From contig CP113000.1 in the NCBI GenBank assembly GCA_026625185.1, forward strand, positions 585,622-617,621: a stretch of 32,000 nt of DNA. The letters run 5' to 3'. The translations under genes were made by a program, and so were the position numbers. Position 1 is the first letter of the stretch. Every line of letters starts with the position of its first letter. The notes below the pieces were generated by a model. The model saw nothing but the letters and a program-made list of their open reading frames with translations. It was not told the DNA's origin and did no database searches. Positions 1-32,000 of this stretch are shown here, one piece after another. This DNA is from Thermodesulfobacteriota bacterium (GTDB taxonomy: Bacteria > Desulfobacterota > WTBG01 > JAGOGO01).

Positions 1-585
1 CCAGATCATAAACGGCACAATCGTGATTACGGGTATCGCAAAAGCAAGGAATCCCTTGGTAAGAAATGCGAGACCGCAGAAGACTCCGAAAACTGACAGA
101 AAGCCAATCTTTTTACCGGGCTGCTTCTCTTTATGGGCAAAAAAGAAAAAAACCATCGCGCCGGTCAAAAACATAGAAAATAGGCCGTCTAAAACATTGA
201 AACATCCAACCCCGAAGACTTCCATAGTGGTAAGAAAAACAGCAGCAGTGCTGATGCCCGCTGAAAATCCCCCTCCGAACTTTCGGACGAACAAAAAAAG
301 CAGCAGCGCAGACCCGCCCGTTGCGAGTGCGGACGGCAGGCGGACCGCAAAGGAGTTTTGGCCAAAAAGAAACATCGCGGCCGCATTAAACCAATATCCC
401 ATCACCGGTTTTTCAAAATACCGGAGTCCGTCGAGATAAGGCACAACCCAATCTCCCGAAACGAGCATCTCCCGGGGAATCTCAGCATACCGGGTCTCGT
501 CGGGGAGGGTAAGCGGTCGCATGCCGAGCGGCACAATGTAAACCAAAACAAAAAATCCGATTACCGCCAGAGCTGATTTTTTCAT
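1..585 (-). CDS. arnT: ArnT-like undecaprenyl-phosphate-Ara4N:lipid A transferase (GT-C/GT83), N-terminal 195 aa; the gene runs off the left edge
   Basis: Not in the ORF track because it has no stop within the window. My minus-strand translation from ATG 585..583 reads MKKSALAVIGFFVLVYIVPLGMRPLTLPDETRYAEIPREMLVSGDWVVPYLDGLRYFEKPVMGYWF...LTKGFLAFAIPVITIVPFMIW. The PDETRYAEI-REM-SGDW-VP-L-G-RYFEKP block is the ArnT N-terminal signature as I recall it from E. coli ArnT. The frame stays open to position 1. Confidence 0.85.
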   Translation of the reverse strand, partial: MKKSALAVIGFFVLVYIVPLGMRPLTLPDETRYAEIPREMLVSGDWVVPYLDGLRYFEKPVMGYWFNAAAMFLFGQNSFAVRLPSALATGGSALLLFLFVRKFGGGFSAGISTAAVFLTTMEVFGVGCFNVLDGLFSMFLTGAMVFFFFAHKEKQPGKKIGFLSVFGVFCGLAFLTKGFLAFAIPVITIVPFMIW

Positions 586-597
586 TGGTTAAGTCCA

Positions 598-984
598 TTA
601 CCCACTTCGAGTGATCAAAAAAACTCCAAAACAAATGACCAAAATGCCCATCCACCGTGCGAAACCAAGAACCTCTCCAAAGAGAATTTGTCCTGCTAAT
701 GCAGTCACGATATACCCTACGCTTAACAGCGGATAAGCGTAACTCACATCCACCCGAGACAAAACCATAAGCCACACAATGATACTAAGAGCATAGCATG
801 TCATGCCCAGGAGAATATGCGGATTAAGAGCCACCTTCAGACCAACTGATATAAAGTTTTTCGCGACAAAAGAAAACGGTCCAATGGCACGCATTCCCTG
901 CTTGAGAAAAAGTTGGGCAGAGGCATTCAAAAGAACTCCACATAAGACCAAGGGAAGATAGCGATTCACAGGATATCCTCGCAT
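598..984 (-). CDS. arnE: Small 4-TM SMR/EamA-type protein, ArnE-like Ara4N-undecaprenyl-phosphate flippase subunit (128 aa)
   Basis: This is the track ORF 598..1116 trimmed to ATG 984. That start lies 1 nt past the arnD stop codon (986-988), and the longer version would overlap arnD by 130 nt. The sequence is hydrophobic with four predicted TM segments. SAQLFLKQG and the C-terminal half (VWLMVLSRVDVSYAYPLLSVGYIVTALAG) resemble E. coli ArnE. It sits between arnD and arnT. Confidence 0.7.
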   Translation of the reverse strand: MRGYPVNRYLPLVLCGVLLNASAQLFLKQGMRAIGPFSFVAKNFISVGLKVALNPHILLGMTCYALSIIVWLMVLSRVDVSYAYPLLSVGYIVTALAGQILFGEVLGFARWMGILVICFGVFLITRSG

Positions 985-985
985 A

Positions 986-1903
986 TTAAGATAGGGTTGT
1001 TGCCTGGCAAGAAACCCATCCCTCACGGCCAGGAATTGTTTTGGGAACCATGGGAGAACATTCAAACTGCGAAGTATCAGTAAGCAAACCTCCCAAGGGG
1101 CTAAACGTTCCCCCACGGGATTGGGCCTGTTTCAGAAACTGCTCAAACATCTTAAAACAGGTCATTCCTTCTACTTCCGCGTGAATGGCCAACACATTAA
1201 GCCGGTCGGGCTTCAACAAAGAGAGGATATACTCATTATAATTGTGGTTTGAAATTCCTTTCTGTCCAATAACTTCATCATACGTTGGTAAGGTAACGGG
1301 AATTTGGGGCTGAGAAAGTGTTATTTCATTCACAATAGGGAAAAATATGCTTTTCCCCCTGCAGTCACTGTTATAGGTGAAAGGAAATGTGGCTTCTTCT
1401 TTGAGGACCTGATCATTACACTTCCATCCCGGAACCGCAGAACATGAGGGTGGCCGGTCCAAAATCGTGGTAAGCAGTGCGATGCCTTTTTTAAACGTAT
1501 CCTGGATGACATCACTGCTCATGTTATGAATATGCCTCTGCCATGCGTAGTGATCCCAGGAATGAAATCCAATTTCATGACCTGCCTCCGCTGTCGCTCG
1601 AATAAGAGGCCCCAGTTTTTCCCCGATCACGGGTCCCGGCCAAAACACACCCTTGAGAAGGATATCCCACCCATACAGTTTCGGTGCCTTGGAACGCAGC
1701 ATCTTTTTTAAAAATGCGGGACGGAACAATCGCCAAAGATGACGCCCCATATTATCCGGCCCCACCGAAAAAAAGAATGAGGCGGTGATACCAAACTCCG
1801 CTAAAAGTTTACCCAGACTGGGCACGCCGAAACGGGTGCCCCTGAAGGTATCAACGTCAATCCGCAGGCCTATACTCATGACACCGTGATTATAGCGGCT
1901 CAT
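986..1903 (-). CDS. arnD: ArnD, 4-deoxy-4-formamido-L-arabinose-phosphoundecaprenol deformylase (polysaccharide deacetylase fold)
   Basis: GLRIDVDTFRGT, ASFFFSVGPDNMGRHLWRLFRP and LRSKAPKLYGWDILL track E. coli ArnD almost residue for residue. The track ORF begins at TTG 1909. ATG 1903 (or ATG 1879) is the more likely start. Confidence 0.9.
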   Translation of the reverse strand: MSRYNHGVMSIGLRIDVDTFRGTRFGVPSLGKLLAEFGITASFFFSVGPDNMGRHLWRLFRPAFLKKMLRSKAPKLYGWDILLKGVFWPGPVIGEKLGPLIRATAEAGHEIGFHSWDHYAWQRHIHNMSSDVIQDTFKKGIALLTTILDRPPSCSAVPGWKCNDQVLKEEATFPFTYNSDCRGKSIFFPIVNEITLSQPQIPVTLPTYDEVIGQKGISNHNYNEYILSLLKPDRLNVLAIHAEVEGMTCFKMFEQFLKQAQSRGGTFSPLGGLLTDTSQFECSPMVPKTIPGREGWVSCQATTLS

Positions 1904-1909
1904 ACGCAA

Positions 1910-3925
1910 TCACCGGTTGTCTTCATCGTATCCACCGGCGCCGATAGCTTCCCGTAAGAAAAAATCGAGGGTTTGCTCTACCGATTGCTCAAGCTCTATC
2001 GAAGGTTTCCACTGCAAGAGCTGCTTCGCTTTCCGAATGCTTGGCCTTCGGTGTTGCAAATCCTGATACCCGCTTCCATAATACGTTGAGCTTTCCACTT
2101 CCTGAAAACCGGCAAATGGCGGGAAATTTGACCGGAGGGGGTGTTCTTCAAATTTTTTCACCAACATCTCGCCCAGTAGTTTGATGCTCGCCTCATTATT
2201 CGGGTTGCCGATATTGATGATCTGCCCGTCACAACAATGGTTTTTATTTTCGATAACGCGAAACAAGCATTCAATCCCGTCGGAAATATCGGTAAAACAA
2301 CGTTTCTGATTTCCCCCGTCAATGAGTTTAATTGGCGTTCCCTCCACCAGGTTAAGGATGAGTTGGGTAATAGCGCGAGAACTCCCGATCCGTGCCGATT
2401 TCAAGCTATCGAGACGCGGCCCGATCCAATTAAAAGGACGAAAGAGGGTAAAATGGAGCCCTTCCTGCTGACCATATGCCCAGATAACCCGGTCAAGCAA
2501 TTGCTTGCTGCAAGAATAGATCCAACGCTGCATGCGGATCGGCCCCAATACAAGCTTCGAACTATCCTCATTAAACTCGCCTTCATCGCACATTCCATAA
2601 ACTTCAGACGTTGAAGGAAAAATAAGCCGTTTTTTATATTTCACGCAGTATCGGACAACTCTCAGATTTTCTTCAAAGTCGAGCTCAAATACCTGAAGTG
2701 GTCTGCGTGTATATTCTATGGGTGTGGCGATGGCCACGAGCGGGATTACTATATCGCATTTTTTTATATGGTACTCGATCCATTCGCGATGAATGGCAAT
2801 ATCCCCTTCATGAAAATAAAATCCTGGTTTACCCAAAAAGCGTTGAATAGACTTGGATTGAAGGTCCAGCCCGTGTACTTCATAGTTCCCGTTATCCAGA
2901 AGCTTTTCAGTTAAAGCGTTACCGATAAAGCCATCAATCCCTAAAACGAGAATTTTTTTCTTTTTTACCATCTCAATGTGCTGGCTGGTAGAAAGTCCAA
3001 AGGTCATCCCCTCAACCAGATTGAGTTCGCGGGCAAGCTGGGTTCCGCCCATGTAAATACCATTTTCAGCCTGGCCGAAATCAACCCGAATGGCGCCTTT
3101 TCCGCACTGAATCACCAAAGGATCACAAGAAATAATAGTACCGGGATCCCTTTTTTCACCCTTATCAGGAATTTCGGTAACCATCCAAAAAAAACATTTG
3201 CGGTCACCGATATAGCTGAATGCTCCCGGATAAGGAATGGTCACCGCCCGCGCCAGATTTCTCACTTGGGAAGCCGTCGCCGACCAGTGTATTTCACCAT
3301 CCTTGGGCCTGCGTCCGCCATAATACGTTGCCTGAGCATGGTCCTGAGGATGACGGGTTATTGTTCCTTTTTTTATCTGGGGAAGAATTTCATCAAGCAA
3401 CTGGTGCGAAGCCGCAACCGTTTTTTCGTAAAGCGACCGCGCAGTATCATAATCAGAAATTGGGATTCTCTTCTGACCGACAATGTCTCCATCGTCAGCC
3501 CGGGGCGTCATATAATGAAGGGTAACCCCGGTTTCTTTCTCGCCGTTGATCAACACCCAGTTTATCGGACAACGTCCCCGGTATTTGGGGAGAAGCGATC
3601 CGTGAAGGTTGAGGCATCCAGCGGGTGGGATGGCGAGGATGGGAGAACGAACAAGATGTCGGTAATAAAAAGAAAAAATAATGTCCGGCGCGAACTCTTG
3701 AACCTTTTTTACCCAGAGGAGGTGGTTGATATCATCGGGCGCGTACACCAGAAGATTATGGCTCGCGGCGCATTCGGTAACCGAACTAAACCAAACGGTT
3801 TCCTGAGGATCATCCTTATGGGTAAAAACCGCGGCAATCTCGAACCCGTTTCGTATCAGAGCATCAATGCCGATACAACCGATATTATGGTAGGCTAAAA
3901 CGACCGCTTTCATTTTTGATTTCAT
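1910..3925 (-). CDS. arnA: ArnA, bifunctional UDP-Ara4N formyltransferase / UDP-glucuronate oxidative decarboxylase
   Basis: The protein is colinear over its full length with E. coli ArnA as I recall it. The N-terminal formyltransferase part has IFSFYYRHL and [13 protein letters not shown]. The C-terminal SDR part has [66 protein letters not shown] and [33 protein letters not shown]. Start is taken at ATG 3925 (GGGAA a few nt upstream); the track start 3943 is TTG. Confidence 0.95.
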
Positions 3926-4064
3926 CTCATTCCCGCCGACCAATAAGTAGTTATTTTTTTGTAAACTGCTTGATTATTATTTTTTATTTTCCGGTGCTTA
4001 ATTTAAGCGCTTAGTAACAGCATGGAATGGCCGGGAAGAAAATAATTTATTCCGTAACAATTTT

Positions 4065-5024
4065 TCAAACGTTTTGCTCTTTGGCACGGCCAACGACTTT
4101 TTGAACAAAATATCGGGGGCGAGCCCTCACATCCCGATAAATCCGCCCGATATATTCGCCCAGTAAACCCATGCCGATAAATTGAGCCCCGATGAAAATA
4201 AAAAGAAGAGCAAACAAGGTGAAGACACCTTCTGCGGCCCATTCAATCCCATAAATTATTCGCATCGCCAAGATAAGGAGACCCAGTCCGAATCCACCCA
4301 CGGCTATAGTGGCCCCAATGAGAGTCAAAAGTCTTAGGGGAAAGGTCGTCATGCTGGTCAACAGATCAAACATGAGATTGATAAGTTTCCAAAAGCTATA
4401 TTTCGAATTACCTTGAGAACGCTTTTCGTGGTGCACTTCTATTTCGGTGGTAAATCGAGCAAAACTGTTGGCAAGCACCGGGATAAAAGTGGTCCGCTCC
4501 TGACATTGAAGCAAGGCCTCTACAATGGGCCGGCGATATGCCCGGAGCATGCAGCCATAATCATGCATCAACACCCCGGTTGACTGCTGTACCGCCTTGT
4601 TGATTAATAAAGAACTCATTTTTCTGAACAAGGTATCCCGCCGGGACAATCGAATGCTGCCGACGACATCAAATCCGGCTTCCATTTTTTTAACCAACTT
4701 TGGTATTTCCTCTGGAGGATTCTGGAGATCAGCATCGAGAGTAACAACGATTTCACCCCGTGATTCGGCAAAACCTGCCATAACCGCAGGGTGCTGTCCA
4801 TAATTCCGGTTTAGCAGGACCCCGATGATTTTGCCCGGATTCTGTTCGGCAGCTTCGGTAATAAGCTGAGCAGAGCGGTCAGAACTGCCGTCATCCACTA
4901 AAATGATCTCGAAGGTCTTTCCCATACGGTCGCCGGTCGCCAGACAACGACCGATAAGCTCCTTAAGGTTTGCCTCCTCGTTAAAAGCAGGAATAACAAC
5001 CGATAACAAAGGGGTTGTACTCAT
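4065..5024 (-). CDS. arnC: ArnC, undecaprenyl-phosphate 4-deoxy-4-formamido-L-arabinose transferase (GT2)
   Basis: [65 protein letters not shown] and [30 protein letters not shown] all match E. coli ArnC. The ATG overlaps the arnB stop as ATGA at 5021-5024. Confidence 0.95.
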
Positions 5025-6172
5025 CGCTTTAACACCTCTTTTATGGTATCCACCACCGCATCCACGTCTTCAATGGTCATATCCGGAAAAAGGGGGAGCG
5101 AGCAAATCCGGTCGGAGTTCCATTCGGTGTTCGGCAACATGCTCCGGCGTGTGCCCATTGACTCCTGATAATATTTCTGGAGGTGCACCGCCCGAAAATG
5201 AAGTCCGGTGCCGATATTTCTTTTCTTTAATTCTTCCATGAACGCATCCCGGCTCAGGCCGACCTTATCAATATCTAAGCGAATAATAAAAAGATGCCAG
5301 GCATGCTTCATCGGATACAAGGGGTCGGCAAGGGGCATGATTTCATCAACTTCGACCAGCCGTTCACGATATCGCAGAGCTAATGCAGTTCGTTTTTTAA
5401 TGAATGCATCGAGACGTCTCAGTTGGCTCAAGCCCAAGGCAGCAGCCATATCGGTTAGGTTATACTTATATCCGGGAGTAACAACCTGGGCCTGGGGAGA
5501 ACGGCCCTGGGTAAAACGATCGTACGCATCCACGCCCAGCCCGTGGAATTTCAATTGCCGGACATGCTCCAGAAGTCCATGGTTGTCCGAACAAAGCATA
5601 CCTCCTTCACCCGTGGTAATATTTTTTATGGGATGAAAGGAAAAAATCGCAGTTCCGGTCCGGCCGATACGATTACCTTTATACTCAGTCCCCAGCGCGT
5701 GGGCGGCATCATCAGCAATAAAAATATTATTCCGCTCAGCCAACTGGCGTATAGAATCTATATCCGCAGGAGCCCCGGCAAAATGAACCGGAACAATTAA
5801 CCGTGTTCTTTCTCTCAGACACTCCCTGATCGAATCGCCTGACACCATCAATGTGTCCCGTTCAATATCCGCAAACACTGGGGTCGCGCCCGCGAGGACA
5901 ATAATATTCACCGTAGAAACCCAGGTCATTGACGGCGTAATAACTTCATCTCCCGGGCCGATACCTAAAGCGTGCAACAAAAGATGCATTCCCGCAGTCC
6001 CGGAAGCGAGCGCCACCGCCCCCGAACAACCAGTGTATCTGCAGAAATTGTCCTCAAATTCGGCACATTTCTGCCCGGTGGTAATCCACCCCGACCGCAG
6101 TACCTCGACAACCGCGGCGATATCTTCCTCCTTAATGGAAGGATGCGAAAATGGTAAAAATTCTTTTCTCAT
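5021..6172 (-). CDS. arnB: ArnB, UDP-4-amino-4-deoxy-L-arabinose:2-oxoglutarate aminotransferase (DegT/DnrJ/EryC1 family)
   Basis: Aminotransferase fold type I. The [16 protein letters not shown] block carries the PLP lysine, as in ArnB. The N-terminus [27 protein letters not shown] is typical of the family. It is the first biosynthetic gene upstream of arnC. Confidence 0.9.
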
Positions 6173-6210
6173 CGCTTTTTTTCGTTATTATTTTTCTTTC
6201 GAAACTTTTT

Positions 6211-8058
6211 TTACTTAACACTTCCTGACAACATTATTTTTTTATCACAGGACGCTCGCCAGAAGCAATGCTTATTTTTCTTCGCATAAAGGGCTCCCCA
6301 GATATAAAGACAATATGAACGGTGCTTGGCAAAATGCCAGCATCGAAGCAAGTGAATCCGCGAGCGAACTTCATCGGGAAGTTTGGGGAAATCTTTTTCG
6401 AACATGAGAAGCTTTCCCTGATGGGTTGTCGATAGATAAAGGTTGAGTTCTTCAGGGGTTGTTATATTTTCTGGCATAAAACCGGTGTCAAACGAAATAA
6501 CCCCCATCGTCGTCTCATTCAGGCAATACCCCATAAATTCCGGAGAAATACCGCTCATGGTCTGGAGGTCTTTTGTAAGAGAATGACGATTTTTGATCCC
6601 ATCTCTCATTCGGTAATACTGTGAACCGCCACACAAAAAAAAGATAAAAGCAAGCCACGCGCAGACCAAAATTACTCGTGGTGAGCCTTTTTCCCAGAGA
6701 CGCATGCCATAAGTAGTTAATCCTATACCCATGAGCAAGAGTAACCCCCAGAGTATGAAAAACAGTGATGCAGAAGGTTTGGCCTGCAAAACAGTATGAA
6801 AAAACCGTGCAAAAAAGGGCTGGCCCCCGAAATAGGCGACCGGCATGGCCACCGAAGTGGCTAAAACAGACAAAGCTAAAATAATAAGCATAATGGCGTG
6901 CGTAGAGTGATCAATTTTTTGCGAGTTTTCACTTTTAGAGGTTGCCGCAACCCAGGCGCCAATCACGATGCCAAGCGGGGCAAAGAGCGGCAAAAGGTAA
7001 AGCATGCGCTTGGTTCCTGGAATACTCAGGAAAATAACGCCGATCGGAAATATTGAAGCCAGGCAAACCAATGCCGTGCCATTCCATTCCGACGGCCAGC
7101 GCTTGCGCCAGAGCCAGTGCCCAACCGCGGGAAGCGTAATCACCCACGGGATAATTTTGATCGGAAATTTCAGGTAGCGCCAGAAAGGATTCTCATGCCC
7201 CCCCCCGTAATGCTGTGCAGCCGAAGGGAAAATACGATTCACAACATTGGGGATGAAAAAGCCTTTCAAAAAAAGTTCCTTGCCTCCCCGAACATAAAGC
7301 ATGAACGGCCACCAAAGACACAAAGCCAGACAAACAAAAATCCCGGGAATATGCACCCACGAACGAAAAAAATTCCATCTCCGTGTTACCAGAATAGCCC
7401 CAATCAACGGCACCGCAACCAAACCCGGACCAACCGGACCTTTGACAAGGAAAGCAAGGCCGCCGGCAAGGTAGACTACAAAAATCCCCAGCGCGGAAGG
7501 TTCGTCCGGTTTTTTATCACCTAAATCTTTTTTGCCGAAGACGGCAACCACGAATCCCCAATAACCAAGCATGACAAAAAGAGCAAGCCAGGGATCAACC
7601 ACCGCCCTATGGAAGTGGCGATAAAAATCAGACATAGTGGCGGTCACAAGTGTTGCCATAAGGCCGGCAAACGGGTTCGCGACCCGCCTGGCTACATCAA
7701 ACACCAAAAGTAATGTCAAAACTGCGGCCAAGGCACTTGTGCTGCGCGCCACCCCATCGGAAACTCCAAAGAGGCGATACATTCCGGCCATGGCCCACCA
7801 GTAAAGCGGAGGCTTTTCCAGGAATGGTTTTCCTGCCAGGGTGGGAACGATCAAGTCGCCGCTTACTAACATCTCCCGCCCAATCTCAGCGTCGCGGGGT
7901 TCATCAGGCGTCCAGAGCGCATGATCAAAGACTCCGCTGAAAGAAATAAGGAGGCTTGCGGCAAACGCCACCAAAAATGCCTGCCGATTAGTCAAGATAG
8001 TTAACTTTTCAACAAGGCTACCGATCAGTTTTGAGAACCAACTATTCATTATAACCAT
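6211..8058 (-). CDS. GT-C fold, polyprenyl-phosphate-sugar-dependent glycosyltransferase (ArnT/PMT-like, GT39/GT83), paralog 2, 615 aa
   Basis: At least 10 predicted TM segments. The first-loop signature TPDEPRDAEIGREMLVSGDLIVPTLAGKPFLEKPPLYWW parallels the ArnT motif seen at 1..585. There is a C-terminal region of about 150 aa after the last TM. An alternative start is ATG 8049. Confidence 0.75.
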   Translation of the reverse strand: MVIMNSWFSKLIGSLVEKLTILTNRQAFLVAFAASLLISFSGVFDHALWTPDEPRDAEIGREMLVSGDLIVPTLAGKPFLEKPPLYWWAMAGMYRLFGVSDGVARSTSALAAVLTLLLVFDVARRVANPFAGLMATLVTATMSDFYRHFHRAVVDPWLALFVMLGYWGFVVAVFGKKDLGDKKPDEPSALGIFVVYLAGGLAFLVKGPVGPGLVAVPLIGAILVTRRWNFFRSWVHIPGIFVCLALCLWWPFMLYVRGGKELFLKGFFIPNVVNRIFPSAAQHYGGGHENPFWRYLKFPIKIIPWVITLPAVGHWLWRKRWPSEWNGTALVCLASIFPIGVIFLSIPGTKRMLYLLPLFAPLGIVIGAWVAATSKSENSQKIDHSTHAIMLIILALSVLATSVAMPVAYFGGQPFFARFFHTVLQAKPSASLFFILWGLLLLMGIGLTTYGMRLWEKGSPRVILVCAWLAFIFFLCGGSQYYRMRDGIKNRHSLTKDLQTMSGISPEFMGYCLNETTMGVISFDTGFMPENITTPEELNLYLSTTHQGKLLMFEKDFPKLPDEVRSRIHLLRCWHFAKHRSYCLYIWGALYAKKNKHCFWRASCDKKIMLSGSVK

Positions 8059-23453: not shown

Positions 23454-24278
23454 TTACCTGCACTCTGCGACGGATTCTTCCGTGCACGCGCTCACCATGT
23501 GTGCCGCACTCTTCAAATCCGCAGGAAAATCGACCTCACAGCTCCGCAGACCTTCAATTGAACATGTCCAAACCTTCATGGTGGGACACAAATCTCGAAT
23601 TACGGACAAGTACCATTTCCGGGAAGACGAAGGATCGCCCATGGCTTTTTCAAGCCCTTGGCGGAAAAGAGCCGGGCCTTCCCCCCGAAAAAGGATCATC
23701 CCCACTGACTCGCCGTCCGTCTTTTCGGGATCGAGATCTTTGCCGATGTTGATGAGTCTTTGTCCTTCCAGGGTCACTTTCATGTCATCGGCGTCGTAGT
23801 GGGACTTGTACGTGATCACTACGGTCACCGGGTGTACGGCTCTACTCAGCACCCGCCGTACCACCCCGGCTTCGAACAACGTGTCCCCGTTAAGCAGGAA
23901 AAAATCTTCATTCATCTCGTCCCGAGCCATCCAGCAACTGACGAGGTTGTCCGTTTCGGCAAACTTAGGGTTTTGGATAAGAGTAATGCGACCCACGCCA
24001 TAGCGCTGGGTCAAAAGCCGCTCAACCTGATCAGCGCCATAACCGACAACTACGCTTACTCGGTCTATCCCGGTGACAAGCAGTGTATCGATCTGCCACT
24101 CAATCAATTTTTTCCCCTGAATGGGCAAGAGACATTTCGGAGTTTCAGCCGTAAGCGGCAACAATCGTTTTCCCTGGCCGGCACTTAAAATAATAGTTTT
24201 AATAAACAGCCTCCCTAAAATAATTGTTTCACTCGGAGAATGGAAAAACGCCTCGCCTTTAGGTAAAGGCTTAAGCAA
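23454..24278 (-). CDS. LicC/IPCT-like cytidylyltransferase (sugar- or alcohol-phosphate nucleotidyltransferase)
   Basis: IILSAGQGKRLLPLTAETPKCLLPIQGKKLIEWQIDTL, VVVGYGADQVERLL, N-KFAETDNLVSCW and FFLLNGDTLF are colinear with pneumococcal LicC as I recall it. The start is ambiguous: TTG 24278 has no SD, whereas ATT 24203 lies 6 nt after GGGAGG. Confidence 0.75.
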   Translation of the reverse strand: MLKPLPKGEAFFHSPSETIILGRLFIKTIILSAGQGKRLLPLTAETPKCLLPIQGKKLIEWQIDTLLVTGIDRVSVVVGYGADQVERLLTQRYGVGRITLIQNPKFAETDNLVSCWMARDEMNEDFFLLNGDTLFEAGVVRRVLSRAVHPVTVVITYKSHYDADDMKVTLEGQRLINIGKDLDPEKTDGESVGMILFRGEGPALFRQGLEKAMGDPSSSRKWYLSVIRDLCPTMKVWTCSIEGLRSCEVDFPADLKSAAHMVSACTEESVAECR

Positions 24279-24335
24279 GCCGAAACTTTGAACCCGATAC
24301 CAAAAGGCATTTATACACTAAACTAATTAAGTGAT

Positions 24336-24872
24336 ACCTAAACTGAGCGATTTTTCTTCGCTAATATACCCAAATCATGGTAGCACAGGTCAGAATATTT
24401 CACCTTTGATAACCGGCGAGATGCCTTTTCTACGATGTTTTGTTAATAAAATCGCTAAGTTAGTTGATATTTATTATTGATTATAATTTATTTATAACAT
24501 TAAATCACTCTTGTCCAAATTTTTTATTGATTATAATTTATTTATAATATAAAATAACTTTTTTCAAAATTAAGTTTTTTTAAAAAAAACAATATGTTGG
24601 ACAGAAGAATGAACATGGGGTATGGTTACCTCCTCGACCCCCTGAAATAACTCTATTGAAAGGCCTTTTGCTCTTAGGAAACGAAACCTTTGCAAAAAAT
24701 ATTTTTTGGTCACCCGGAACTAGTTTTAGGTTCTCGGAACATGTTGATTTTATTAGATGCTGAAACAAGTTCAGCATAACATAATAGTCTTAATTGACAT
24801 TTGGGCAACAAGCTCTTCTGACCTGTCCTACTGTGGTTTTGGAACCTTAAACAAGAATCGCTCAGTTTAGGT
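24336..24872. mobile_element. 537-bp noncoding element bounded by perfect 17-bp inverted repeats (MITE-like)
   Basis: ACCTAAACTGAGCGATT at 24336..24352 is the exact reverse complement of AATCGCTCAGTTTAGGT at 24856..24872. The interior is AT-rich and has no credible ORF. It contains a 2 x 50 bp tandem repeat and an 8-bp-stem hairpin, ATGCTGAA-acaag-TTCAGCAT (24757..24777). I saw no target-site duplication. Confidence 0.45.
24471..24570. repeat. Tandem direct repeat, 2 x 50 bp
   Basis: Copies 24471..24520 and 24521..24570 match at 43 of 50 positions by hand alignment. This includes a perfect 24-nt core, TTATTGATTATAATTTATTTATAA, at 24474..24497 and 24524..24547. Confidence 0.85.
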
Positions 24873-25021
24873 CTCGAATACCATCAACGTTCGAAGGTTT
24901 TCGCTACTTTTCACTGAAAATTTTTCTGGCTTTTTACAACTAATCGGGAGAAAAACCAAATTTTTTAATGACAGACTTATTTTTTGATTGAATAAGTAAA
25001 AATTTTGTGTTAAGAAAAAAA

Positions 25022-25054
25022 ATTAAATATTATTAATGTGTAATAATATTTAAT
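25022..25054. promoter_or_regulatory. Perfect 14-bp inverted repeat with a 5-nt spacer (candidate operator) upstream of the FAAL operon
   Basis: ATTAAATATTATTA-atgtg-TAATAATATTTAAT. A second perfect 12-bp inverted repeat (ATACTATAAAAT 25068..25079 and ATTTTATAGTAT 25100..25111) overlaps a consensus TATAAT at 25109..25114. Confidence 0.4.
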
Positions 25055-25275
25055 GGATATTATAAAAATACTATAAAATATTAGGTTATTTTCTATTTGA
25101 TTTTATAGTATAATTTGTTTAAAACATCACTTTCATCTTAAAAAAACCCCATTAGCATCACGTCGGAAAAATTTTTGAGAGGATATACTAAGGAATTTAT
25201 AAAGTTCCACGTATAAATTAGGAATAAAGTTTCTAAAAAAATGTAGTCATTTTGAACATCAAGGAGTCTATTCTT

Positions 25276-27039
25276 ATGGAGGCTACGCCGACCCAAAACG
25301 ATTTGCAGTTGCGACTGGCAGATTTCTCGAGCCTGGCAGAAGCAGTGGATTACGCGGCACAAGGTAAAACAGGATTCAACTTCTATCGCGGGGGGAAGAT
25401 AGTGTCTGTTCTCCCCTATGCGAAATTACGGGAAAAAGCGATAATTCTTGCGCGTCGTCTTTGCGGCTTAGGTGTGGAGCGGGGAAGTCGGGTTGGCCTG
25501 GTGGCTGATACCGAGCCGGCTTTCATGATTTTTTTCTTCGCCTGCCAGTACGCAGGACTGGTTCCGGTTCCTCTGCCGGCTTTTTTCCATATGGGTAGTC
25601 ATAAAGCCTATGTGGAACAGTTGCGGCGGCTGCTCATCAACTGCGATGCGGAAATAGCTGTTGCTCACAAAGGCTATTTCGAGTTTCTCAATAAGGCGGC
25701 AGAAGGACTGAATCTTCGTTTCGTGGGTACTCCCGAAGCCTTCGCAGAACTCCCTGAAGCGTCGACCACCCTGCGGCCTCTTGAAAGTGACGAACTGGCA
25801 TACCTGCAATACACTTCAGGAAGCACCCGCTTCCCCCGGGGGGTAATGATTACCCAGGCCACCTTAATGAGCAATCTAGCGGACATCAGCATTCACGGGG
25901 TTAAGGTACGGCCGGAAGATCGCTGCGTGTCATGGCTTCCTTTTTATCACGATATGGGGCTCGTGGGGCTGGTGCTGGTTCCGGTAGCATCTCAGAGATC
26001 CGTTGATTATTCCAGCACTTTTGATTTCGCTATGCGCCCCAGACAATGGATAGCGTTGATGAGCCAGAACAAAGCGACTATTTCTTTCAGCCCCCCGTTT
26101 GGTTACGAGCTGTGCGCCCGCCGAATAAGGCCAGAGGATATTGCCGGGTTTGATCTCAGCAACTGGCGTGTTGCCGGCGTTGGGGCGGAAATGATTCGTC
26201 CCGGACCGCTGGAGGATTTTGCCGGGGTCTTCTCTTCGTGCGGGTTTAAAGAGGAGGCATTTCTCGCTTGTTACGGGATGGCCGAATGCTCTCTTGCCGT
26301 GAGCTTTGCGCCGCTTGACCGTGCGCTGGAGTTGGACTACATTGATGGGAACAGCCTTGCCCGAGACAAAAAAGCCGCTCCCATTGATCCGGCACACAAG
26401 AAGGATAGTGCCCGGGTGAAGCAGTTTGTTAAGTGCGGCATACCGTTGCCGCAGTATGAAATTTCCGTGCGGGATTCACAAGGACGGGATTTGCCGGATA
26501 GACATTGCGGAACCCTCTTTGTGCGGGGACCCAGTGTTATGAGCGGCTATTTCGCCGATCCCGAAAATACCAATGCGGTGTTGTCTTCTGAGGGTTGGCT
26601 TAACACCGGAGATTTGGCATACCGGATCTCCGGCGAAATCGTGATTACGGGCCGAAAAAAGGACCTCATTATCATCAACGGCCGCAATATTTGGCCGCAG
26701 GATCTGGAATACCTGGCGCAGGCGCAGCCGGAAGTAAGATCGGGGGATGCGGCTGCCTTCTCGGTGCCGGGTCCGGATGGGGGAGAAAAGGCGGTAATCA
26801 TGATCGAGTGCCGCGAGTCAGACGCTGCAAAACGTACTGCGCTCATAGAACGTTTGCGGACCATATTTCTTGAAGAGCTCGGGCTGGACTGTTTGATCTG
26901 TCTTGTCCCTCGTAATACTTTACCACGCACGACATCAGGTAAACTGTCCCGGTCTCAAGCCCGTCAAAGATTCCTCGAACAATTCGGCAAAGAGCTGCTG
27001 ACGCAATCGAACATGGACATATATAAACAGGCGAGTTAA
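25276..27039 (+). CDS. Fatty acyl-AMP ligase (FAAL-type adenylating enzyme), likely acyl-ACP synthetase for sphingolipid synthesis
   Basis: AYLQYTSGSTRFPRGVMIT is an FAAL-style AMP-binding motif. Also present: WLPFYHDMGL, GYGMAE, GWLNTGDLAY, GRKKDLIIINGRNIWPQD and a C-terminal TSGK. AAGGAG sits 9 nt upstream of ATG 25276; the track start 25252 is TTG. Confidence 0.85.
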   Translation: MEATPTQNDLQLRLADFSSLAEAVDYAAQGKTGFNFYRGGKIVSVLPYAKLREKAIILARRLCGLGVERGSRVGLVADTEPAFMIFFFACQYAGLVPVPLPAFFHMGSHKAYVEQLRRLLINCDAEIAVAHKGYFEFLNKAAEGLNLRFVGTPEAFAELPEASTTLRPLESDELAYLQYTSGSTRFPRGVMITQATLMSNLADISIHGVKVRPEDRCVSWLPFYHDMGLVGLVLVPVASQRSVDYSSTFDFAMRPRQWIALMSQNKATISFSPPFGYELCARRIRPEDIAGFDLSNWRVAGVGAEMIRPGPLEDFAGVFSSCGFKEEAFLACYGMAECSLAVSFAPLDRALELDYIDGNSLARDKKAAPIDPAHKKDSARVKQFVKCGIPLPQYEISVRDSQGRDLPDRHCGTLFVRGPSVMSGYFADPENTNAVLSSEGWLNTGDLAYRISGEIVITGRKKDLIIINGRNIWPQDLEYLAQAQPEVRSGDAAAFSVPGPDGGEKAVIMIECRESDAAKRTALIERLRTIFLEELGLDCLICLVPRNTLPRTTSGKLSRSQARQRFLEQFGKELLTQSNMDIYKQAS

Positions 27040-27227
27040 ACAGGCTCTCCTGTGAAAGCCCCGCAATTACCCCGAAGGAGCCGCAAAAAGCACACCTTGA
27101 CGAAAGGGAAAGACGAATATACAACTGCGTTCGGATTAACCGTTCGTCCGTACGGGTTAGTCCGGGATTTGGGCTTTGGGGTGATCGTTTATGAGATGTT
27201 CAGATCGGTCATAACCGGACAGGCAAA

Positions 27228-28169
27228 ATGTCTCGCATCGTAGCCCTCACGGGAGCAACAGGGTTTATTGGCGCCGCCATAGCGCGTCGGCTGAAAGCCG
27301 CAGACTGGCAGATAAGAGCGCTGGTCCGTCCCACGTCAAGACGAGACCATCTCGACGGTCTTGGCCTCCATTGGATAGAAGGTGCTCTTAGTGACCCGGA
27401 AAGCTTGCGCCGTCTGGTGCTGGGGGCAGATGCGGTGGTGCATTGTGCCGGAGCGGTGCGGGGCGCGGATTCTGAGGACTTTATACGCGTAAACAAACAT
27501 GGGGTGTCGCGGCTGGTGCAAGCAGCCACCGAGCAGCTGCCGAAGCCTCGTTTTTTGCTCATCTCTTCACTTGCCGCCCGTGAGCCGCACCTTTCGCCCT
27601 ATGCAGCAAGCAAGCGACAGGGAGAAGAGGAACTTGCCGCCGGAGCGGGTGAAATGCCGTGGGCGGCGCTGCGGCCATCAGTTGTCTATGGGCCGGGAGA
27701 CAAAGAGTTGCTTTCTCTTTTTCGATTGATGTACCGGGGAGTCGGCTTGGTGCTGGGGCCGACCGATGCCCGGTTTTCGATGCTGTATGTAGACGATCTT
27801 GCCGAGGCAGTGGCGCAATGGCTGAAATGCGGGAACACGCGGCAACGAGTGTTTGAAGTGCATGACGGGCAGCCCGACGGCTATAGCTGGGACGATCTCA
27901 TTAAGACCATGGCCCGGGTGAGGGAAGGGCGTGTGCGTCCGGTGAGGATTTCAGCCCCATTTTTGTCGATTTTGGCCTCGATCAATTTCGTGGCGGCACA
28001 AGCAGCCGGATACGCTCCGATGCTTACGCCGGGCAAGGTGCGCGAGTTACGGCACTCAAACTGGGTAGGTGATAATACCTTGTTCACTCGTGAGACCGGG
28101 TGGATTCCCCTCGTTCGTCTGGAAGCGGGGTTGCGGCGCATACTAAAACCGGACAGCAGATCCCATTAG
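27228..28169 (+). CDS. Extended SDR, NAD(P)-dependent epimerase/reductase family; candidate ceramide/3-ketosphinganine reductase (CerR-like)
   Basis: Rossmann motif LTGATGFIGAAI and catalytic SPYAASK (Y-x3-K). It is positioned between the FAAL and the ACP-SPT pair, as described for the Caulobacter ceramide genes. Confidence 0.7.
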   Translation: MSRIVALTGATGFIGAAIARRLKAADWQIRALVRPTSRRDHLDGLGLHWIEGALSDPESLRRLVLGADAVVHCAGAVRGADSEDFIRVNKHGVSRLVQAATEQLPKPRFLLISSLAAREPHLSPYAASKRQGEEELAAGAGEMPWAALRPSVVYGPGDKELLSLFRLMYRGVGLVLGPTDARFSMLYVDDLAEAVAQWLKCGNTRQRVFEVHDGQPDGYSWDDLIKTMARVREGRVRPVRISAPFLSILASINFVAAQAAGYAPMLTPGKVRELRHSNWVGDNTLFTRETGWIPLVRLEAGLRRILKPDSRSH

Positions 28170-28211
28170 TCCCTTTGCCGGCAGAAATGACGGTAGAATG
28201 AGGTAAGATAT

Positions 28212-28463
28212 ATGCAGGATTATCGAGAATTGGTGGTGAAGATTTGTGATATAATACGGCCCTTCAACAAGGATGGCATTGACCTGAATGAAGAGACTGA
28301 TCTGGCCGGAGATCTCGGGCTTGATTCCCTGAAAGTAATGGAGCTACTCGTCACGGTTGAAGACAGCCTCGATATTTCTATTCCCCTCAACGTTCTGCCT
28401 CGCGTGCGCACCATAAAGGATTTTGCGGAACAACTGCAACTATTACTCTCAGAAAGGTCATAG
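28212..28463 (+). CDS. Acyl carrier protein (83 aa)
   Basis: DLGLDSLKVMEL carries the phosphopantetheine-attachment serine, and the size is typical. GAGGT sits about 7 nt upstream of the ATG. Confidence 0.9.
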   Translation: MQDYRELVVKICDIIRPFNKDGIDLNEETDLAGDLGLDSLKVMELLVTVEDSLDISIPLNVLPRVRTIKDFAEQLQLLLSERS

Positions 28464-29662
28464 TGGCTATCTTTGACAAATTACATCCAATTAGCTCGGC
28501 ACTCCAAGACCTACAAAATTGTGGGGTGGACTCTGTCAACGTTGTCATAGAACGTTTTACTGCTCCTTTTGAAGCGGTGATAAACGGCCGCCGCACAGTT
28601 CTTGCCGGCACGAACAACTATTTGGGCCTTACCTTTGATCAGGAATGTATCCGGGCGGCATGTGAGGCTCTTCAGCAGGAAGGCACCGGCACCACCGGGT
28701 CACGAATGGCCAATGGGAATTACGCTGCCCATATCGCTCTGGAACGCGAATTGGCGGAATTTTTCGGCCGTAAAGGAGCCATTGTATTTTCAACCGGATA
28801 TGTGGCCATCCTGGGGATGATAACGGCTTTGGCAGGACCCGGGGATATTATTCTTATAGATTCTGACTGTCATGCGAGCATCTATGATGGGTGCCGTTTG
28901 GCCGGAGCCCAATTCATGATTTTTAAACACAACAACATCGGTGATCTTGAGAAGCGTTTGCGACGGCTGGGCAAGCAGACAGAAAACACCCTGATCGTGG
29001 TGGAAGGCATATACAGCATGCTGGGCGATCGTGCGATCCTGGCCGATATCGCTGCGGTAAAGAAGAACTACGGCGCCTGCATTTTGGTGGATGAAGCACA
29101 TTCCCTGGGGGTTCTCGGCAAACAGGGCCGTGGTCTCGCGGAGGAAGCCGGCGTTGAGGATGACGTTGATTTCATCGTCGGAACCTTCAGCAAGAGTTTA
29201 GGCACCATCGGAGGCTATTGTGTCAGTAATCATTCCCAGCTGGAACTGCTCCGTTTCGCGAGCCGACCATACATATTTACCGCATCTCCTTCTCCCTCAA
29301 TCATCGCGTCGACCCGCGAAGCTCTGAAAATTATACGCGCACGTCCTGAGTTGCGCAGCCGGCTTTGGGAAAACGCCCGGACGTTATATCAGCGCCTGAA
29401 GGACATGGATTTTGTTCTTGGTCCGGCGCCAAGCCCCATTATTCCCGTGCGTCTGAAAGACATAGTAAAGGCCGTGGCATTCTGGAACAGGCTTTTGGAG
29501 CATGGGGTATATGTAAACATGGTATTGCCACCCGCCACGACCGACGGAAATCCTTTGTTGCGTTGCAGCGTGAGCGCCGGTCACACTCCTGAACAGGTGG
29601 AACAAATCTGTGAAGCATTTGCTTCTCTCCGGGATGTTTCTGGGCCTCACCTGATGAGCTGA
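28463..29662 (+). CDS. spt: Serine palmitoyltransferase (alpha-oxoamine synthase family, PLP-dependent)
   Basis: GTNNYLGLTFD, GTGTTGSRMANG, AIVFSTGYVA, DSDCHASIYDGC, VVEGIYSMLGD, LVDEAHSLG and DFIVGTFSKSLGTIGGY are colinear with Sphingomonas SPT as I recall it, and closer to it than to BioF or KBL. The GTG start overlaps the ACP stop by 1 nt (taGTG). Confidence 0.85.
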   Translation: MAIFDKLHPISSALQDLQNCGVDSVNVVIERFTAPFEAVINGRRTVLAGTNNYLGLTFDQECIRAACEALQQEGTGTTGSRMANGNYAAHIALERELAEFFGRKGAIVFSTGYVAILGMITALAGPGDIILIDSDCHASIYDGCRLAGAQFMIFKHNNIGDLEKRLRRLGKQTENTLIVVEGIYSMLGDRAILADIAAVKKNYGACILVDEAHSLGVLGKQGRGLAEEAGVEDDVDFIVGTFSKSLGTIGGYCVSNHSQLELLRFASRPYIFTASPSPSIIASTREALKIIRARPELRSRLWENARTLYQRLKDMDFVLGPAPSPIIPVRLKDIVKAVAFWNRLLEHGVYVNMVLPPATTDGNPLLRCSVSAGHTPEQVEQICEAFASLRDVSGPHLMS

Positions 29663-29725
29663 AAAGGATTGCCACGCCGGGCTTCGCCACTTGCGCCCTC
29701 CCGAAATTACGAGGTACTCATACAT

Positions 29726-31468
29726 ATGCGCCTACTGATAACCTTCGTCCGAAAGTACCCCCGCCATAGCGTGATTACGCTGTTTGCTTTGCTGCTGGCC
29801 GGTGCGGCGGAAGGTTTCGGCCTTACCGGAATTCTTACGTTGATTAGCCGTATTGGCGGCAATGGGATTTTGAAGGGCTCGCTATCGAAGGGAGGTTCTT
29901 TTCCACTGGCGCATTATTTGACAAATGCTCTTGCCGCGTTAGGCCTGAGCCCTACGATCGGCATGCTGCTGGCGGTGTTGGTCGCCGGTTTTGCGGTGAA
30001 AAGCGTATTCATGCTGTTGGCCAACAAGCGGGTCGGCTATACGGTTGCCCATGTCGCCACCGACCTGCGTCTTGCGTTGCTTCGCGCGCTCCTTACCACC
30101 CGCTGGGAATACTATCTTGGCCAACCGGTAGGCGCTCTTGCCAATTCATTCGCTACCGAAGCTTCGCGCGCGTCTCATGGGTATGAGTCGGGCGCTAAAA
30201 TGGCGGCGCTTTGCATACAAGCCATAATCTATCTGATAATCGGCCTTTGCCTCTCCTGGAAAGCGATGCTCGCCTCCATGGCCGCCGGGGCGATTATTCT
30301 TTTTGGATTAAGCCATTTCGTGCGAATGTCTCGGCGCGCCGGCCGCCGTCAAACATCACTGCTTCAGTCCTCGCTCGCACGTCTGACCGACAGCCTCCAA
30401 TCAATAAAACCGCTCAAGGCCATGGCGCGTGAGGAGCTGGCCGATGCTGTGCTGGTTACCGAAACCAAGCTCCTGAACAAGGCTATGAAAAAAGATGTGT
30501 TCAGCAAGGAGGCCCTGAAATCTTTTCAGGAGCCGATGGTTACCGGTTTACTGGGATTTGGAATTTTTGTGGCGCTTGAATTTTTGGCCTTACCGCTGGC
30601 TTCCATAATGGGTTTGGTATTTGTAATCGCCAACATGGTGACCAAGCTGAACAAGGTGCAGCAGGAGTATCAGAAAATGGTCACTTTTGAAAGCGCCTAT
30701 TGGTCATTGCAGGAAAAGATCAAGAATTGCGAGCATGAGCAGGAAGAGGTTTTAGGAACTGCCAAAGCATCGCTTGAGCGAAGCGTTTGCATGGATCACG
30801 TCAGTTTCAAATATGGGAAGCATTGGGTATTGCAGGAAGCGTCCCTGGAATTGCCTGCCGGGTTTTTTACCGCTATTACCGGGTCATCAGGAACCGGAAA
30901 AACCACGGTGGCTGACCTTCTGATCGGGCTGCTTCGGCCTCAGAAGGGGCAGATATTGATTGATGGTCAGCCCCTTTCCACGATAGACATTAAAAGCTGG
31001 CGGCGGATGATCGGTTATGTACCGCAGGAGACCCTGCTTTTGCACGATACCGTGATGAAAAACGTGACGCTCGGCGCTTCTGACTTAAGCGAAAAAGACG
31101 TTGAAAACGCCCTGATTGCGGCGGGCATTTGGGATTTCGTGGCAACCATGCCGCAAGGGATGCACACCACTGTTGGCGAGCGCGGAGGCAAACTCTCAGG
31201 CGGTCAGCGGCAGCGGATCGCCATCGCCCGGGCGCTTGTCCATAAGCCGTCGTTGCTGATTCTGGATGAAGCGACCAGCGGCCTGGATCCCGAAACCGAA
31301 AAGCGCATCTGCGACACCTTGCGAGGACTCCGGGGAAAACTTACGATTCTCGCTATTTCTCATCAACCTGCCCTGATAAATGCCGCTGACCGGGCTTACC
31401 ACATCAAGGATGAAAGGGCGGTTTTAACCGTAAACCCAACCGACATCGGGGCTGATTCGAAAGCATAG
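29726..31468 (+). CDS. MsbA-like ABC exporter, fused TMD-NBD half-transporter
   Basis: N-terminal 6-TM ABC_membrane region. Walker A GSSGTGKTT, signature LSGGQRQR, Walker B LLILDEATSGLD, and H-loop ILAISH. ATG 29726 (GAGGT 10 nt upstream) is preferred over TTG 29669. Confidence 0.9.
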   Translation: MRLLITFVRKYPRHSVITLFALLLAGAAEGFGLTGILTLISRIGGNGILKGSLSKGGSFPLAHYLTNALAALGLSPTIGMLLAVLVAGFAVKSVFMLLANKRVGYTVAHVATDLRLALLRALLTTRWEYYLGQPVGALANSFATEASRASHGYESGAKMAALCIQAIIYLIIGLCLSWKAMLASMAAGAIILFGLSHFVRMSRRAGRRQTSLLQSSLARLTDSLQSIKPLKAMAREELADAVLVTETKLLNKAMKKDVFSKEALKSFQEPMVTGLLGFGIFVALEFLALPLASIMGLVFVIANMVTKLNKVQQEYQKMVTFESAYWSLQEKIKNCEHEQEEVLGTAKASLERSVCMDHVSFKYGKHWVLQEASLELPAGFFTAITGSSGTGKTTVADLLIGLLRPQKGQILIDGQPLSTIDIKSWRRMIGYVPQETLLLHDTVMKNVTLGASDLSEKDVENALIAAGIWDFVATMPQGMHTTVGERGGKLSGGQRQRIAIARALVHKPSLLILDEATSGLDPETEKRICDTLRGLRGKLTILAISHQPALINAADRAYHIKDERAVLTVNPTDIGADSKA

Positions 31469-31681
31469 TGGTTCGGCGCAGAGCTTACGGATTTGACGCA
31501 GGCAACGTAAGGGAGTATCTTAATTAAAGAAAGTAATACCGAAGTTTGAGAAACGTTTGTAGGTGTCGGGTAAGTAAACCTTATTTCTCTGTATACAATA
31601 AAATACTCAGGTGTAGAATGCTTAAGTGGAGATTGGGGCTTTTGATTTTTTTAGATTTTTTTTGTTTGGTAGAGTTGGACA

Positions 31682-32000
31682 ATGATTCCAAAAAGGTTAA
31701 AGGCTGCCGTTGTTATTATTTTAATAATTTCTTTGTTTGGCGGCTGTGCAAGGTTTGAGCAGAAGCTTTTTGATTGGGGCCTGTGCTTCGAGCGGCAAAG
31801 GTCCGATTTGGTTTCTCGAACCATTCACGTGGATGGGCAAAACATTGCCTATTTAGAGCGACCGGGGGAAGGCCAAACTATTGTCCTGCTGCACGGATTC
31901 GGGGCCAATAAAGATACCTGGATTCGTTTTGTTCGTTATCTGCCCAAAAAATTCCGGATACTCGCCATTGATATGCCGGGTCATGGAGACAACAGCCGGA
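31682..32000 (+). CDS. Alpha/beta-hydrolase-fold lipoprotein, N-terminal 106 aa; runs off the right edge
   Basis: Not in the ORF track because it has no stop. My translation is MIPKRLKAAVVIILIISLFGGCARFEQ...IHVDGQNIAYLERPGEGQTIVLLHGFGANKDTWIRFVRYLPKKFRILAIDMPGHGDNS. It has a signal peptide with a lipobox-like LFGGC, then the HGFG oxyanion-hole motif typical of alpha/beta hydrolases. Confidence 0.7.
   Translation, partial: MIPKRLKAAVVIILIISLFGGCARFEQKLFDWGLCFERQRSDLVSRTIHVDGQNIAYLERPGEGQTIVLLHGFGANKDTWIRFVRYLPKKFRILAIDMPGHGDNSR

Follow-up and report, generated by a model that had tools for sequence, protein, structure and literature searches.

An arn operon and a Caulobacter-type phosphosphingolipid locus as two probably separately inherited envelope-lipid modules that meet in an uncultured Thermodesulfobacteriota bacterium

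Does the close proximity of genes for lipid A modification, lipopolysaccharide (LPS) exporter-like permeases and sphingolipid synthesis in one bacterial genome reflect a common function, or merely a common address? The question is raised by a 32,000-nucleotide stretch of DNA (the window; G000:C1:585622-617621) from the 3.3-Mb, single-contig genome (G000) of an uncultured anaerobic member of the Thermodesulfobacteriota (Desulfobacterota). An earlier note, based on the sequence of the window, regarded it as one adaptive unit balancing two classes of outer-leaflet lipids. Our analysis favors a different answer: the window is probably where two envelope-lipid modules with separate inheritance adjoin, an arn operon for aminoarabinose modification of lipid A with its own sensor system (module A, 1-13239, entirely on the minus strand) and a Caulobacter-type locus for phosphosphingolipid synthesis and export (module B, 13358-32000, continuing to ~60.5 kb in window coordinates). 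Both modules are new examples of known systems, and they came together a single time, within one branch of the genus.

Pfam and NCBIfam profile scans were run on 26 open reading frames (ORFs) of the window; they recovered all the gene classes listed in the earlier note where it had placed them, and its functional assignments hold. The window was then compared with three other genomes of the genus (G001-G003), genomes of other genera of the same family (G004, G006), genus-level metagenome contigs (L025, L028, L030), gammaproteobacterial loci from metagenome-assembled genomes (MAGs; L010-L012), and further metagenome loci (L031-L104). Only 8 species genomes represent the host's order, and 42 its class. 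One window protein has close homologs in records named Thermodesulfobacteriota, Dissulfuribacterales, and Desulfobacterales.

The two modules meet at 13240-13357, with a Tam41-like gene of module B on one side and the response regulator gene of module A on the other. The same Tam41-like/regulator junction is present in L025, which extends into the gene encoding a 566-amino acid (aa) GT-C protein, and in L028. The spacer of ~110 bp is near-identical in G000, L025, and L028; the spacer between ribF and the response regulator gene in G003 shows no relation to it. Therefore, the junction arose once and was then inherited. Elsewhere in the genus the arrangement differs. In L030, the Tam41-like gene occurs in a different context. 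G002 carries the block of arn, GT-C, histidine kinase, and response regulator genes, with ribF directly after the regulator gene, whereas in G000 the two are 47 kb more distant. Searches of G002 (84% complete) recovered none of Spt, LptG2, and the Tam41-like gene. G003 possesses both modules, but its regulator gene abuts ribF and its sphingolipid locus is located on another contig, where the far end of the locus joins genes found at 1.71 Mb in G000. In G001, the head-group, LptF2/G2, and ceramide synthase (CerS) genes adjoin genes from 0.33 Mb of G000, and neither an Spt match nor an ArnA ortholog was detected in that genome. Each module also occurs without the other, with arn genes only in G002 and sphingolipid genes only in G001.

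Outside the genus, the linkage was not encountered. The Tam41-like protein has 551 metagenome relatives; contigs of the best 80 of them were fetched, yielding 73 non-genus loci (538 kb), in which no arn, GT-C, or LmtA homologs were found (in 17 of these loci, the relevant side extends for 5 kb or more). From the phylum, 400 genomes were sampled: 16 encode Spt and 11 a strong ArnD ortholog, none encoding both; in two Spt-positive genomes a weak ArnD-like gene is present, either 1.1 Mb away or on a different contig. The corresponding figures for 400 sampled Gammaproteobacteria, the class of L012, are 17 with Spt, 25 with an ArnD-like gene, and 0 with both. Taken over the two samples, an ArnD-like gene near Spt was found in 0/33 Spt-positive genomes, and the three genomes closest in Spt also lack ArnD. 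In the literature, we found no published link of arn with sphingolipid loci. The arn-lptFG-spt linkage, the conservation of which the earlier note had proposed to determine, is kept in some close relatives (L025, L028, at the Tam41-like/regulator junction) and was not found in G002, G003, the 73 non-genus loci, or the 33 Spt-positive genomes. As the two modules are neighbors in one branch of the genus only, the idea of one coordinated unit is not supported.

Regulation points in the same direction. Module A encodes a sensor histidine kinase with a HAMP-HisKA-HATPase architecture (11163-12596, minus strand) belonging to the CusS/CopS-type heavy-metal-sensor subfamily (TIGR01386, 316 bits, cut-off 293) and an OmpR/PhoB-type response regulator (12565-13239, minus strand; TIGR01387, 276.2 bits, just below the cut-off of 279.2). 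Heavy-metal sensor and regulator subfamilies are the best models for this pair, in contrast to PmrB (152 bits, cut-off 314) and PmrA (188 bits, cut-off 330), neither of which is reached. Four phased TTAA repeats, forming a putative response regulator operator, are located at 8132-8167, upstream of the 615-aa GT-C gene and the arn operon, and a second copy at 11113-11148, upstream of the LmtA-like gene. The repeats have a period of 10-11 bp, and the pattern count in the window is 4 versus 0.02 expected by chance; elsewhere in the window, no phased TTAA operator is present. The direct-repeat half-sites with this period are reminiscent of the PmrA box. The operator occupies the equivalent site in G002; in G003 it lies ahead of arnB and in L028 ahead of LmtA, and it was not found in any other fetched DNA, including every sphingolipid locus. 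Moreover, the regulator is linked to GT-C/arn genes every time it occurs (G002, G003, L025, L028). Because the operator is conserved there and the two regulatory genes are always linked to GT-C/arn genes, the data support a two-component system that looks dedicated to the lipid A genes, as the earlier note had anticipated. This system probably drives the arn operon and the LmtA-like gene via the phased TTAA operator, to which we link the regulator by inference, and the kinase-regulator pair would thus resemble PmrAB in function though it falls outside the PmrAB family. As far as the sequences tell, nothing ties the regulation of one module to that of the other.

What, then, is module B? The ceramide part is encoded on the plus strand by a fatty acyl-AMP ligase (FAAL) of the AasR type (25252-27039; NF006624, 778 bits, cut-off 600), an extended short-chain dehydrogenase/reductase, which is a candidate ceramide reductase CerR (27228-28169; PF01370, 97.8 bits; syntenic with Spt in L010-L012), a dedicated acyl carrier protein (ACP) of the AcpR type (28212-28463; PF00550, PP-binding, found on the identical gene in L008), and serine palmitoyltransferase, Spt (28463-29662; NF047599, 610.5 bits, cut-off 500). 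Spt, a dedicated ACP, FAAL, and a CerR-type reductase thus occur in one operon, as is characteristic of the Caulobacter type. A 392-aa GNAT-like protein in the CC_1154 position (21219-22397, plus strand) is a probable bacterial ceramide synthase on the basis of its homologs and its synteny with L010-L012; it has no Pfam or NCBIfam match, and its homologs bear the name N-acetyltransferase or that of a protein 'associated with serine palmitoyltransferase', some of them with PF00583.

All six head-group gene types of Caulobacter are represented by domain type. Three form a single minus-strand operon: the Tam41/CDP-DAG-synthase-like protein of the CC_1161 type (13358-14317; PF09139), a DAGK-family lipid kinase, candidate ceramide kinase of the CC_1160/CpgB type (14314-15420; PF00781, 42.7 bits), and a CDP-alcohol phosphatidyltransferase of the CC_1159 type (15356-16576; PF01066, 43.9 bits). 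The remaining ones are a Metallophos phosphoesterase of the CC_1158 type (17083-18063, plus strand; PF00149, 66.4 bits), a MobA/CofC-like nucleotidyltransferase of the CC_1153 type (22446-23348, plus strand; PF12804, 52.8 bits), and a sugar/alcohol-phosphate nucleotidyltransferase of the CC_1152 type (23454-24278, minus strand; PF00483/PF12804). For export, the locus encodes LptG2 (18264-19367, minus strand; TIGR04408, 329 bits), LptF2 (19407-20501, minus strand; TIGR04407, 295 bits), and an ABC half-transporter, candidate sphingolipid flippase (29669-31468, plus strand), which is not an MsbA protein (TIGR02203, 226 bits versus a cut-off of 602). Homologs of this transporter (52-53% identical) lie downstream of Spt in L011 (directly), L092 (~0.5 kb on), and L072 (only the end of Spt being on the contig).

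In Caulobacter crescentus, CC_1162-CC_1165 correspond to spt, acpR, cerR, and aasR, CC_1154 to ceramide synthase, CC_1160 to ceramide kinase, CC_1161 to a CDP-DAG-synthase-like protein, CC_1159 to a CDP-alcohol transferase, CC_1158 to a phosphoesterase, CC_1153 and CC_1152 to nucleotidyltransferases, CC_1155 and CC_1156 to LptG2 and LptF2, and CC_1166 to a possible flippase (Olea-Ozuna et al., PMC11324152). By its domains, module B is a domain-for-domain counterpart of the CC_1152-CC_1166 locus, with partly conserved order. Compared with the wider CC_1152-CC_1168 region (CCNA_01212-01226), it shares Spt, AcpR, CerR, AasR, the position of CerS, the six head-group types, a second LptF/LptG pair without its own LptB, a candidate flippase and, in part, the gene order. 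It differs in its host, an anaerobic member of the Thermodesulfobacteriota rather than an alpha- or gammaproteobacterium, in the lack of a visible LptC2 in the window locus, and in additional downstream tailoring genes; the ABC half-transporter is compared with CC_1166 as a candidate flippase only. Gammaproteobacterial clusters of the Azotobacter vinelandii/P. luteola type (PMC11324152, Fig. 7) show identities of 31-57% to module B and have no counterpart of its phosphoesterase or ABC exporter. A scan of genome contigs with Spt gave three loci (L010-L012), the metagenome scan with the Tam41-like protein being far richer; these three gammaproteobacterial MAG loci share the sphingolipid gene set, and LptF2/G2 is embedded in one of them, L012 (a Pseudomonadales MAG), where CerR, Spt, the Tam41-like protein, CDP-alcohol transferase, LptG2/F2, both nucleotidyltransferases, CerS, and FAAL are encoded in one block.

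By analogy with Caulobacter, module B would act in four steps. Spt, the ACP, the acyl-AMP ligase, CerR, and the GNAT-like ceramide synthase would produce ceramide, to which the DAGK-type kinase, the Tam41-like enzyme, the CDP-alcohol transferase, the two nucleotidyltransferases, and the phosphoesterase would add an anionic head group, predicted from CC_1152-CC_1161 to be that of ceramide phosphoglycerate (CPG) or ceramide diphosphoglycerate (CPG2). The ABC half-transporter would then probably flip the lipid over the inner membrane, and the accessory LptF2/G2, presumably powered by the sole LptB, would extract the sphingolipid toward the outer membrane. What the sequences establish is the family to which each gene belongs, the accessory nature of LptF2/G2, and where the junction occurs; both the lipid product and the transport roles we infer from this comparison.

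The distribution of the head-group genes bears on the proposed second step. The Tam41-like gene lies beside the kinase gene in 60 of the 73 non-genus loci. Of these 73, 13 have at least 7 kb upstream of the Tam41-like gene and are informative: all contain the kinase (13) and phosphoesterase (13) genes, 11 a ceramide synthase candidate, and 9 LptF2/G2. The CDP-alcohol transferase occurs in 5 and the nucleotidyltransferase of the 23454 type in 4, both together in 4, the transferase alone in 1, and the nucleotidyltransferase alone in 0. The two genes are thus gained or lost jointly while the kinase, Tam41-like, and phosphoesterase genes stay constant, which suggests that CPG-only and CPG2-type variants of the locus exist. 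This joint gain and loss fits the proposal that confines the CDP-alcohol transferase and the nucleotidyltransferase to the second (CPG2) step, and may aid work on the pathway.

Among the alternatives, the one that survives best, though we regard it as unlikely, is that module B builds a head group other than phosphoglycerate, such as an inositol-phosphate, glycerol-phosphate, or phosphonate ceramide. The best NCBIfam matches of the CDP-alcohol transferase are phosphatidylinositol-phosphate synthases (46-49 bits), the enzyme encoded at 23454-24278 resembles inositol-1-phosphate cytidylyltransferase, and genes for phosphoenolpyruvate (PEP) mutase, NeuB, a cytidylyltransferase, and a sulfatase-family transferase follow shortly downstream. 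However, the NCBIfam matches pointing to alternative head groups all fall far under their cut-offs, CPG2 in Caulobacter is made by the same six domain types (PMC11324152), and the gene order of module B partly follows CC_1152-CC_1161. A phosphoglycerate-type head group thus remains the preferred assignment.

Less probable, in our judgment quite improbable, is the explanation put forward in the earlier note, in which the arn, LptFG, and sphingolipid genes would constitute one co-selected and co-regulated unit balancing the charge of lipid A against an anionic sphingolipid in the outer leaflet. The parallel with Caulobacter on which it drew holds up. Module B corresponds to the CPG2 locus, and in Caulobacter polymyxin targets CPG2 (PMC11324152), a lipid that both governs polymyxin sensitivity and permits the loss of lipid A (PMC11324152; bioRxiv 10.64898/2026.04.12.717747). 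In addition, the modules are adjacent and co-directional in G000, L025, and L028, no terminator-like site is seen at the junction, and the wider 47-kb segment carries more envelope-lipid genes, including one for an LpxL-like acyltransferase. Against it stand the one-time, inherited origin of the junction, confined to some members of one genus, the position of ribF beside the regulator gene in G002 and G003, where the junction is absent, the separation of the modules in G001 and G002, the lack of linkage in all 73 non-genus loci and all 33 Spt-positive genomes, and the absence of the TTAA operator from sphingolipid DNA. The single adaptive unit proposed in the earlier note is not supported by the comparison.

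Several points nevertheless weigh against reading the window as a junction of two independent modules, one of them a Caulobacter-type locus. The genes from 16576 down to 1 are all co-directional, and since no terminator-like site is seen at the junction, read-through coupling the modules is possible. The junction has been kept across lineages whose proteins are ~80% identical, and its persistence could reflect selection. The relatives are fragmented MAGs throughout, so that each 'absent' is provisional, as for G002. Finally, the match of module B with Caulobacter was drawn from domains and synteny, the PF09139 match of the Tam41-like protein is marginally below the Pfam cut-off (23.7 bits versus 24), and the head group was assigned by domain equivalence only. 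Functional coupling of the two modules in this branch of the genus is even more doubtful than the co-selected unit discussed above, but two routes can be named. Read-through from the head-group operon, with a promoter near 16650, into the regulator and kinase genes would let sphingolipid synthesis raise the masking of lipid A charge; alternatively, a surplus ArnT-like GT-C paralog or the LmtA-like enzyme would decorate the phosphosphingolipid, which, if true, would set a precedent for charge modification among bacterial sphingolipids. The best promoter-like site ahead of the CDP-alcohol transferase gene is at 16678-16649, and no promoter-like or terminator-like site was seen on the minus strand at 13240-13357; the counts in these promoter and terminator scans were not above chance and give weak hints only.

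The embedded LptF/LptG pair was described in the earlier note as LPS export, a separate system located nearby, which does not agree with what we found. The genome contains four PF03739 genes, the second pair being located at C1:275396-277888 and, like the window pair, scoring above the LptF/LptG equivalog cut-offs of the TIGR models. The LptG of the 275396-277888 pair is present in 5/5 genomes of the family (86-90% identity within the genus, 52-57% in other genera), whereas the window LptG is present in 2/5 (G001, G003); no counterpart was found in G002, G004, or G006, where the weak matches of G004 and G006 correspond to their canonical gene. The window LptG and LptF are only 21% and 25% identical, respectively, to the conserved counterparts of the same genome. 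Because it is patchily distributed and 21-25% identical to the conserved pair, the window pair is an accessory second pair (LptF2/G2) of the sphingolipid locus, and not the vertically inherited LPS exporter, universal in the lineage, of this cell. It has no dedicated LptB; one LptB and one MsbA (C1:1527871-1529571) score above the cut-off in the genome, both encoded outside the window, and LpxC is also present elsewhere in the genome. LptF2/G2 proteins, which published work places mainly in alpha- and gammaproteobacteria, have been implicated by experiment in sphingolipid export (PMC11324152; bioRxiv 10.64898/2026.04.12.717747); in Caulobacter, LptF2/LptG2 bind the sole LptB and can be deleted only if spt or the ceramide kinase is absent (bioRxiv 10.64898/2026.04.12.717747). 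The idea that the embedded pair might be a new sphingolipid exporter was accordingly abandoned, such exporters being already published as LptF2/G2 in the same two studies. That the window pair is instead the LPS exporter of the cell, lying among sphingolipid genes by chance, is highly improbable: both proteins exceed the equivalog cut-offs and score above the other pair, but it is the other pair that is conserved across the family (5/5 against 2/5), relatives of the window pair sit within sphingolipid loci of unrelated bacteria, and Caulobacter genetics assigns such pairs to sphingolipid export (bioRxiv 10.64898/2026.04.12.717747). The case also exposes an annotation trap, since both pairs clear the cut-offs for LPS exporters, yet the window pair is of the sphingolipid type.

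Module A comprises ArnA, ArnB, ArnC, ArnD, ArnT, and an ArnE/F-like protein together, with ArnA and ArnD above their equivalog cut-offs and ArnB and ArnC just under; all its genes are on the minus strand. The N-terminal 195 codons of arnT run off the window start (1-585; NF009784 ArnT, E=2.5e-67, model positions 5-197; PF02366/PF13231), followed by a single ArnE/ArnF-like SMR/EamA flippase subunit (598-1116; NF002816 ArnF, 64.5 bits against a cut-off of 99; PF00892), the real start of which is probably downstream of 1116. Next come arnD, encoding the deformylase (986-1909; NF011923, 392 bits, cut-off 382), arnA, encoding the bifunctional formyltransferase/UDP-GlcA oxidase (1910-3943; NF005998, 1087 bits, cut-off 777), arnC, encoding the undecaprenyl-phosphate Ara4FN transferase (4065-5024; NF007986, 496 bits, just below the cut-off of 529; PF00535), and arnB, encoding the aminotransferase (5021-6172; NF008658, 587 bits, just below the cut-off of 631; PF01041, 406 bits). 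The transcription unit is headed by the gene for an ArnT-like GT-C paralog of 615 aa (6211-8058; PF13231; ArnT model, 127 bits), found in G002 and not in G003, and is preceded by that for a divergent GT-C paralog of 566 aa (8310-10010; PF13231, 68.8 bits; weak ArnT match), found in G002, G003, and L025. A fourth ArnT-like GT-C gene (554 aa; PF02366/PF13231) is located at G000:C1:582207-583868, ~1.8-3.4 kb before the window start and beyond arnT, so that the arn region encodes four GT-C transferases against one ArnC-type donor synthase. The GT-C paralogs do not track the sphingolipid locus: both window paralogs occur in G002, where searches recovered no sphingolipid genes, and G003 contains the locus without the 615-aa paralog. 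Compared with arnBCADTEF (pmrHFIJKLM) and PmrAB of Salmonella and Escherichia coli, module A shares the complete Ara4N gene set and an adjacent OmpR-family two-component system, and differs in three extra GT-C paralogs, the LmtA-like methyltransferase, and just one ArnE/F-like gene.

The LmtA-like protein, an ICMT/PEMT-family membrane methyltransferase (10318-11061, minus strand), aligns with TIGR04571 over its full length. It is a candidate only for a lipid A 1-phosphate methyltransferase, because its score of 222.9 bits is under the cut-off of 325. With LmtA of Leptospira interrogans it shares, besides the full-length match, the ICMT/PEMT fold and the context of lipid A modification. GC content is ~40% across 10000-12000 (from the LmtA-like gene into the start of the kinase gene) versus 46-56% in the rest of the window, and no LmtA ortholog was found in G001-G003, which together is consistent with recent acquisition. 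The gene is present in L028, where the histidine kinase and LmtA-like genes are separated by a gap of 3.7 kb (13200-16860) containing duplicated C-terminal fragments of the 566-aa GT-C and kinase genes, together with another (second) copy of the TTAA operator; this arrangement points to local rearrangement in the lipid A module.

On the other side, the window ends within the gene for an alpha/beta hydrolase, a probable lipoprotein (31682-32000, plus strand; PF00561; lipobox-like N-terminus ...ISLFGGC). The 47-kb segment missing from G002 and G003 ends at about window coordinate 60.5 kb (G000:C1:617000-646100 corresponding to ~31.4-60.5 kb). Beyond the window, it encodes PLD-like, GFO/IDH, and NeuB-cupin proteins, an APH-like kinase, a 669-aa sulfatase-family (membrane) protein, PEP mutase, a GT1 glycosyltransferase, a HAD protein, a cytidylyltransferase, two AMP-binding enzymes, an ACP-thioesterase, the LpxL-like acyltransferase, and a radical SAM protein. 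These downstream genes may serve further tailoring of the head group or of lipid A, possibly with phosphonate or nonulosonate. A mobile element behind the segment was considered and rejected: a scan found no tRNA gene in the window, and there is no integrase or transposase domain among the scanned ORFs; rearrangement is the most that can be claimed.

Two further features of the sphingolipid genes were observed. Between the 23454-24278 nucleotidyltransferase gene and the FAAL-Spt operon lies an AT-rich region without a credible ORF (24333-24875), with 26-nt inverted repeats at its ends (88% complementary); synteny with G001 ends on this side of the nucleotidyltransferase gene, the head-group half being kept and the FAAL-Spt operon absent there. 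Elsewhere in the genome, a 35%-identical paralog of the ceramide synthase candidate (G000:C1:437129-438238) and an Spt/BioF-like alpha-oxoamine synthase of 43% identity whose gene contains one in-frame TGA (418933-419958) are encoded 18 kb apart, and may represent a second amino-lipid pathway.

For the biology of this group, the adjacency of the arn and sphingolipid genes is a local curiosity unless regulatory or chemical cross-talk exists between them. The sphingolipid locus itself has wider meaning. Sphingolipid genes of Desulfobacterota were earlier inferred from Spt alone (PMC11334938), and the present locus extends the host range of the Caulobacter-type system: by its domains, a full phosphosphingolipid locus, with LptF2/G2 and a candidate ABC flippase, is found in a strictly anaerobic member of the Thermodesulfobacteriota.

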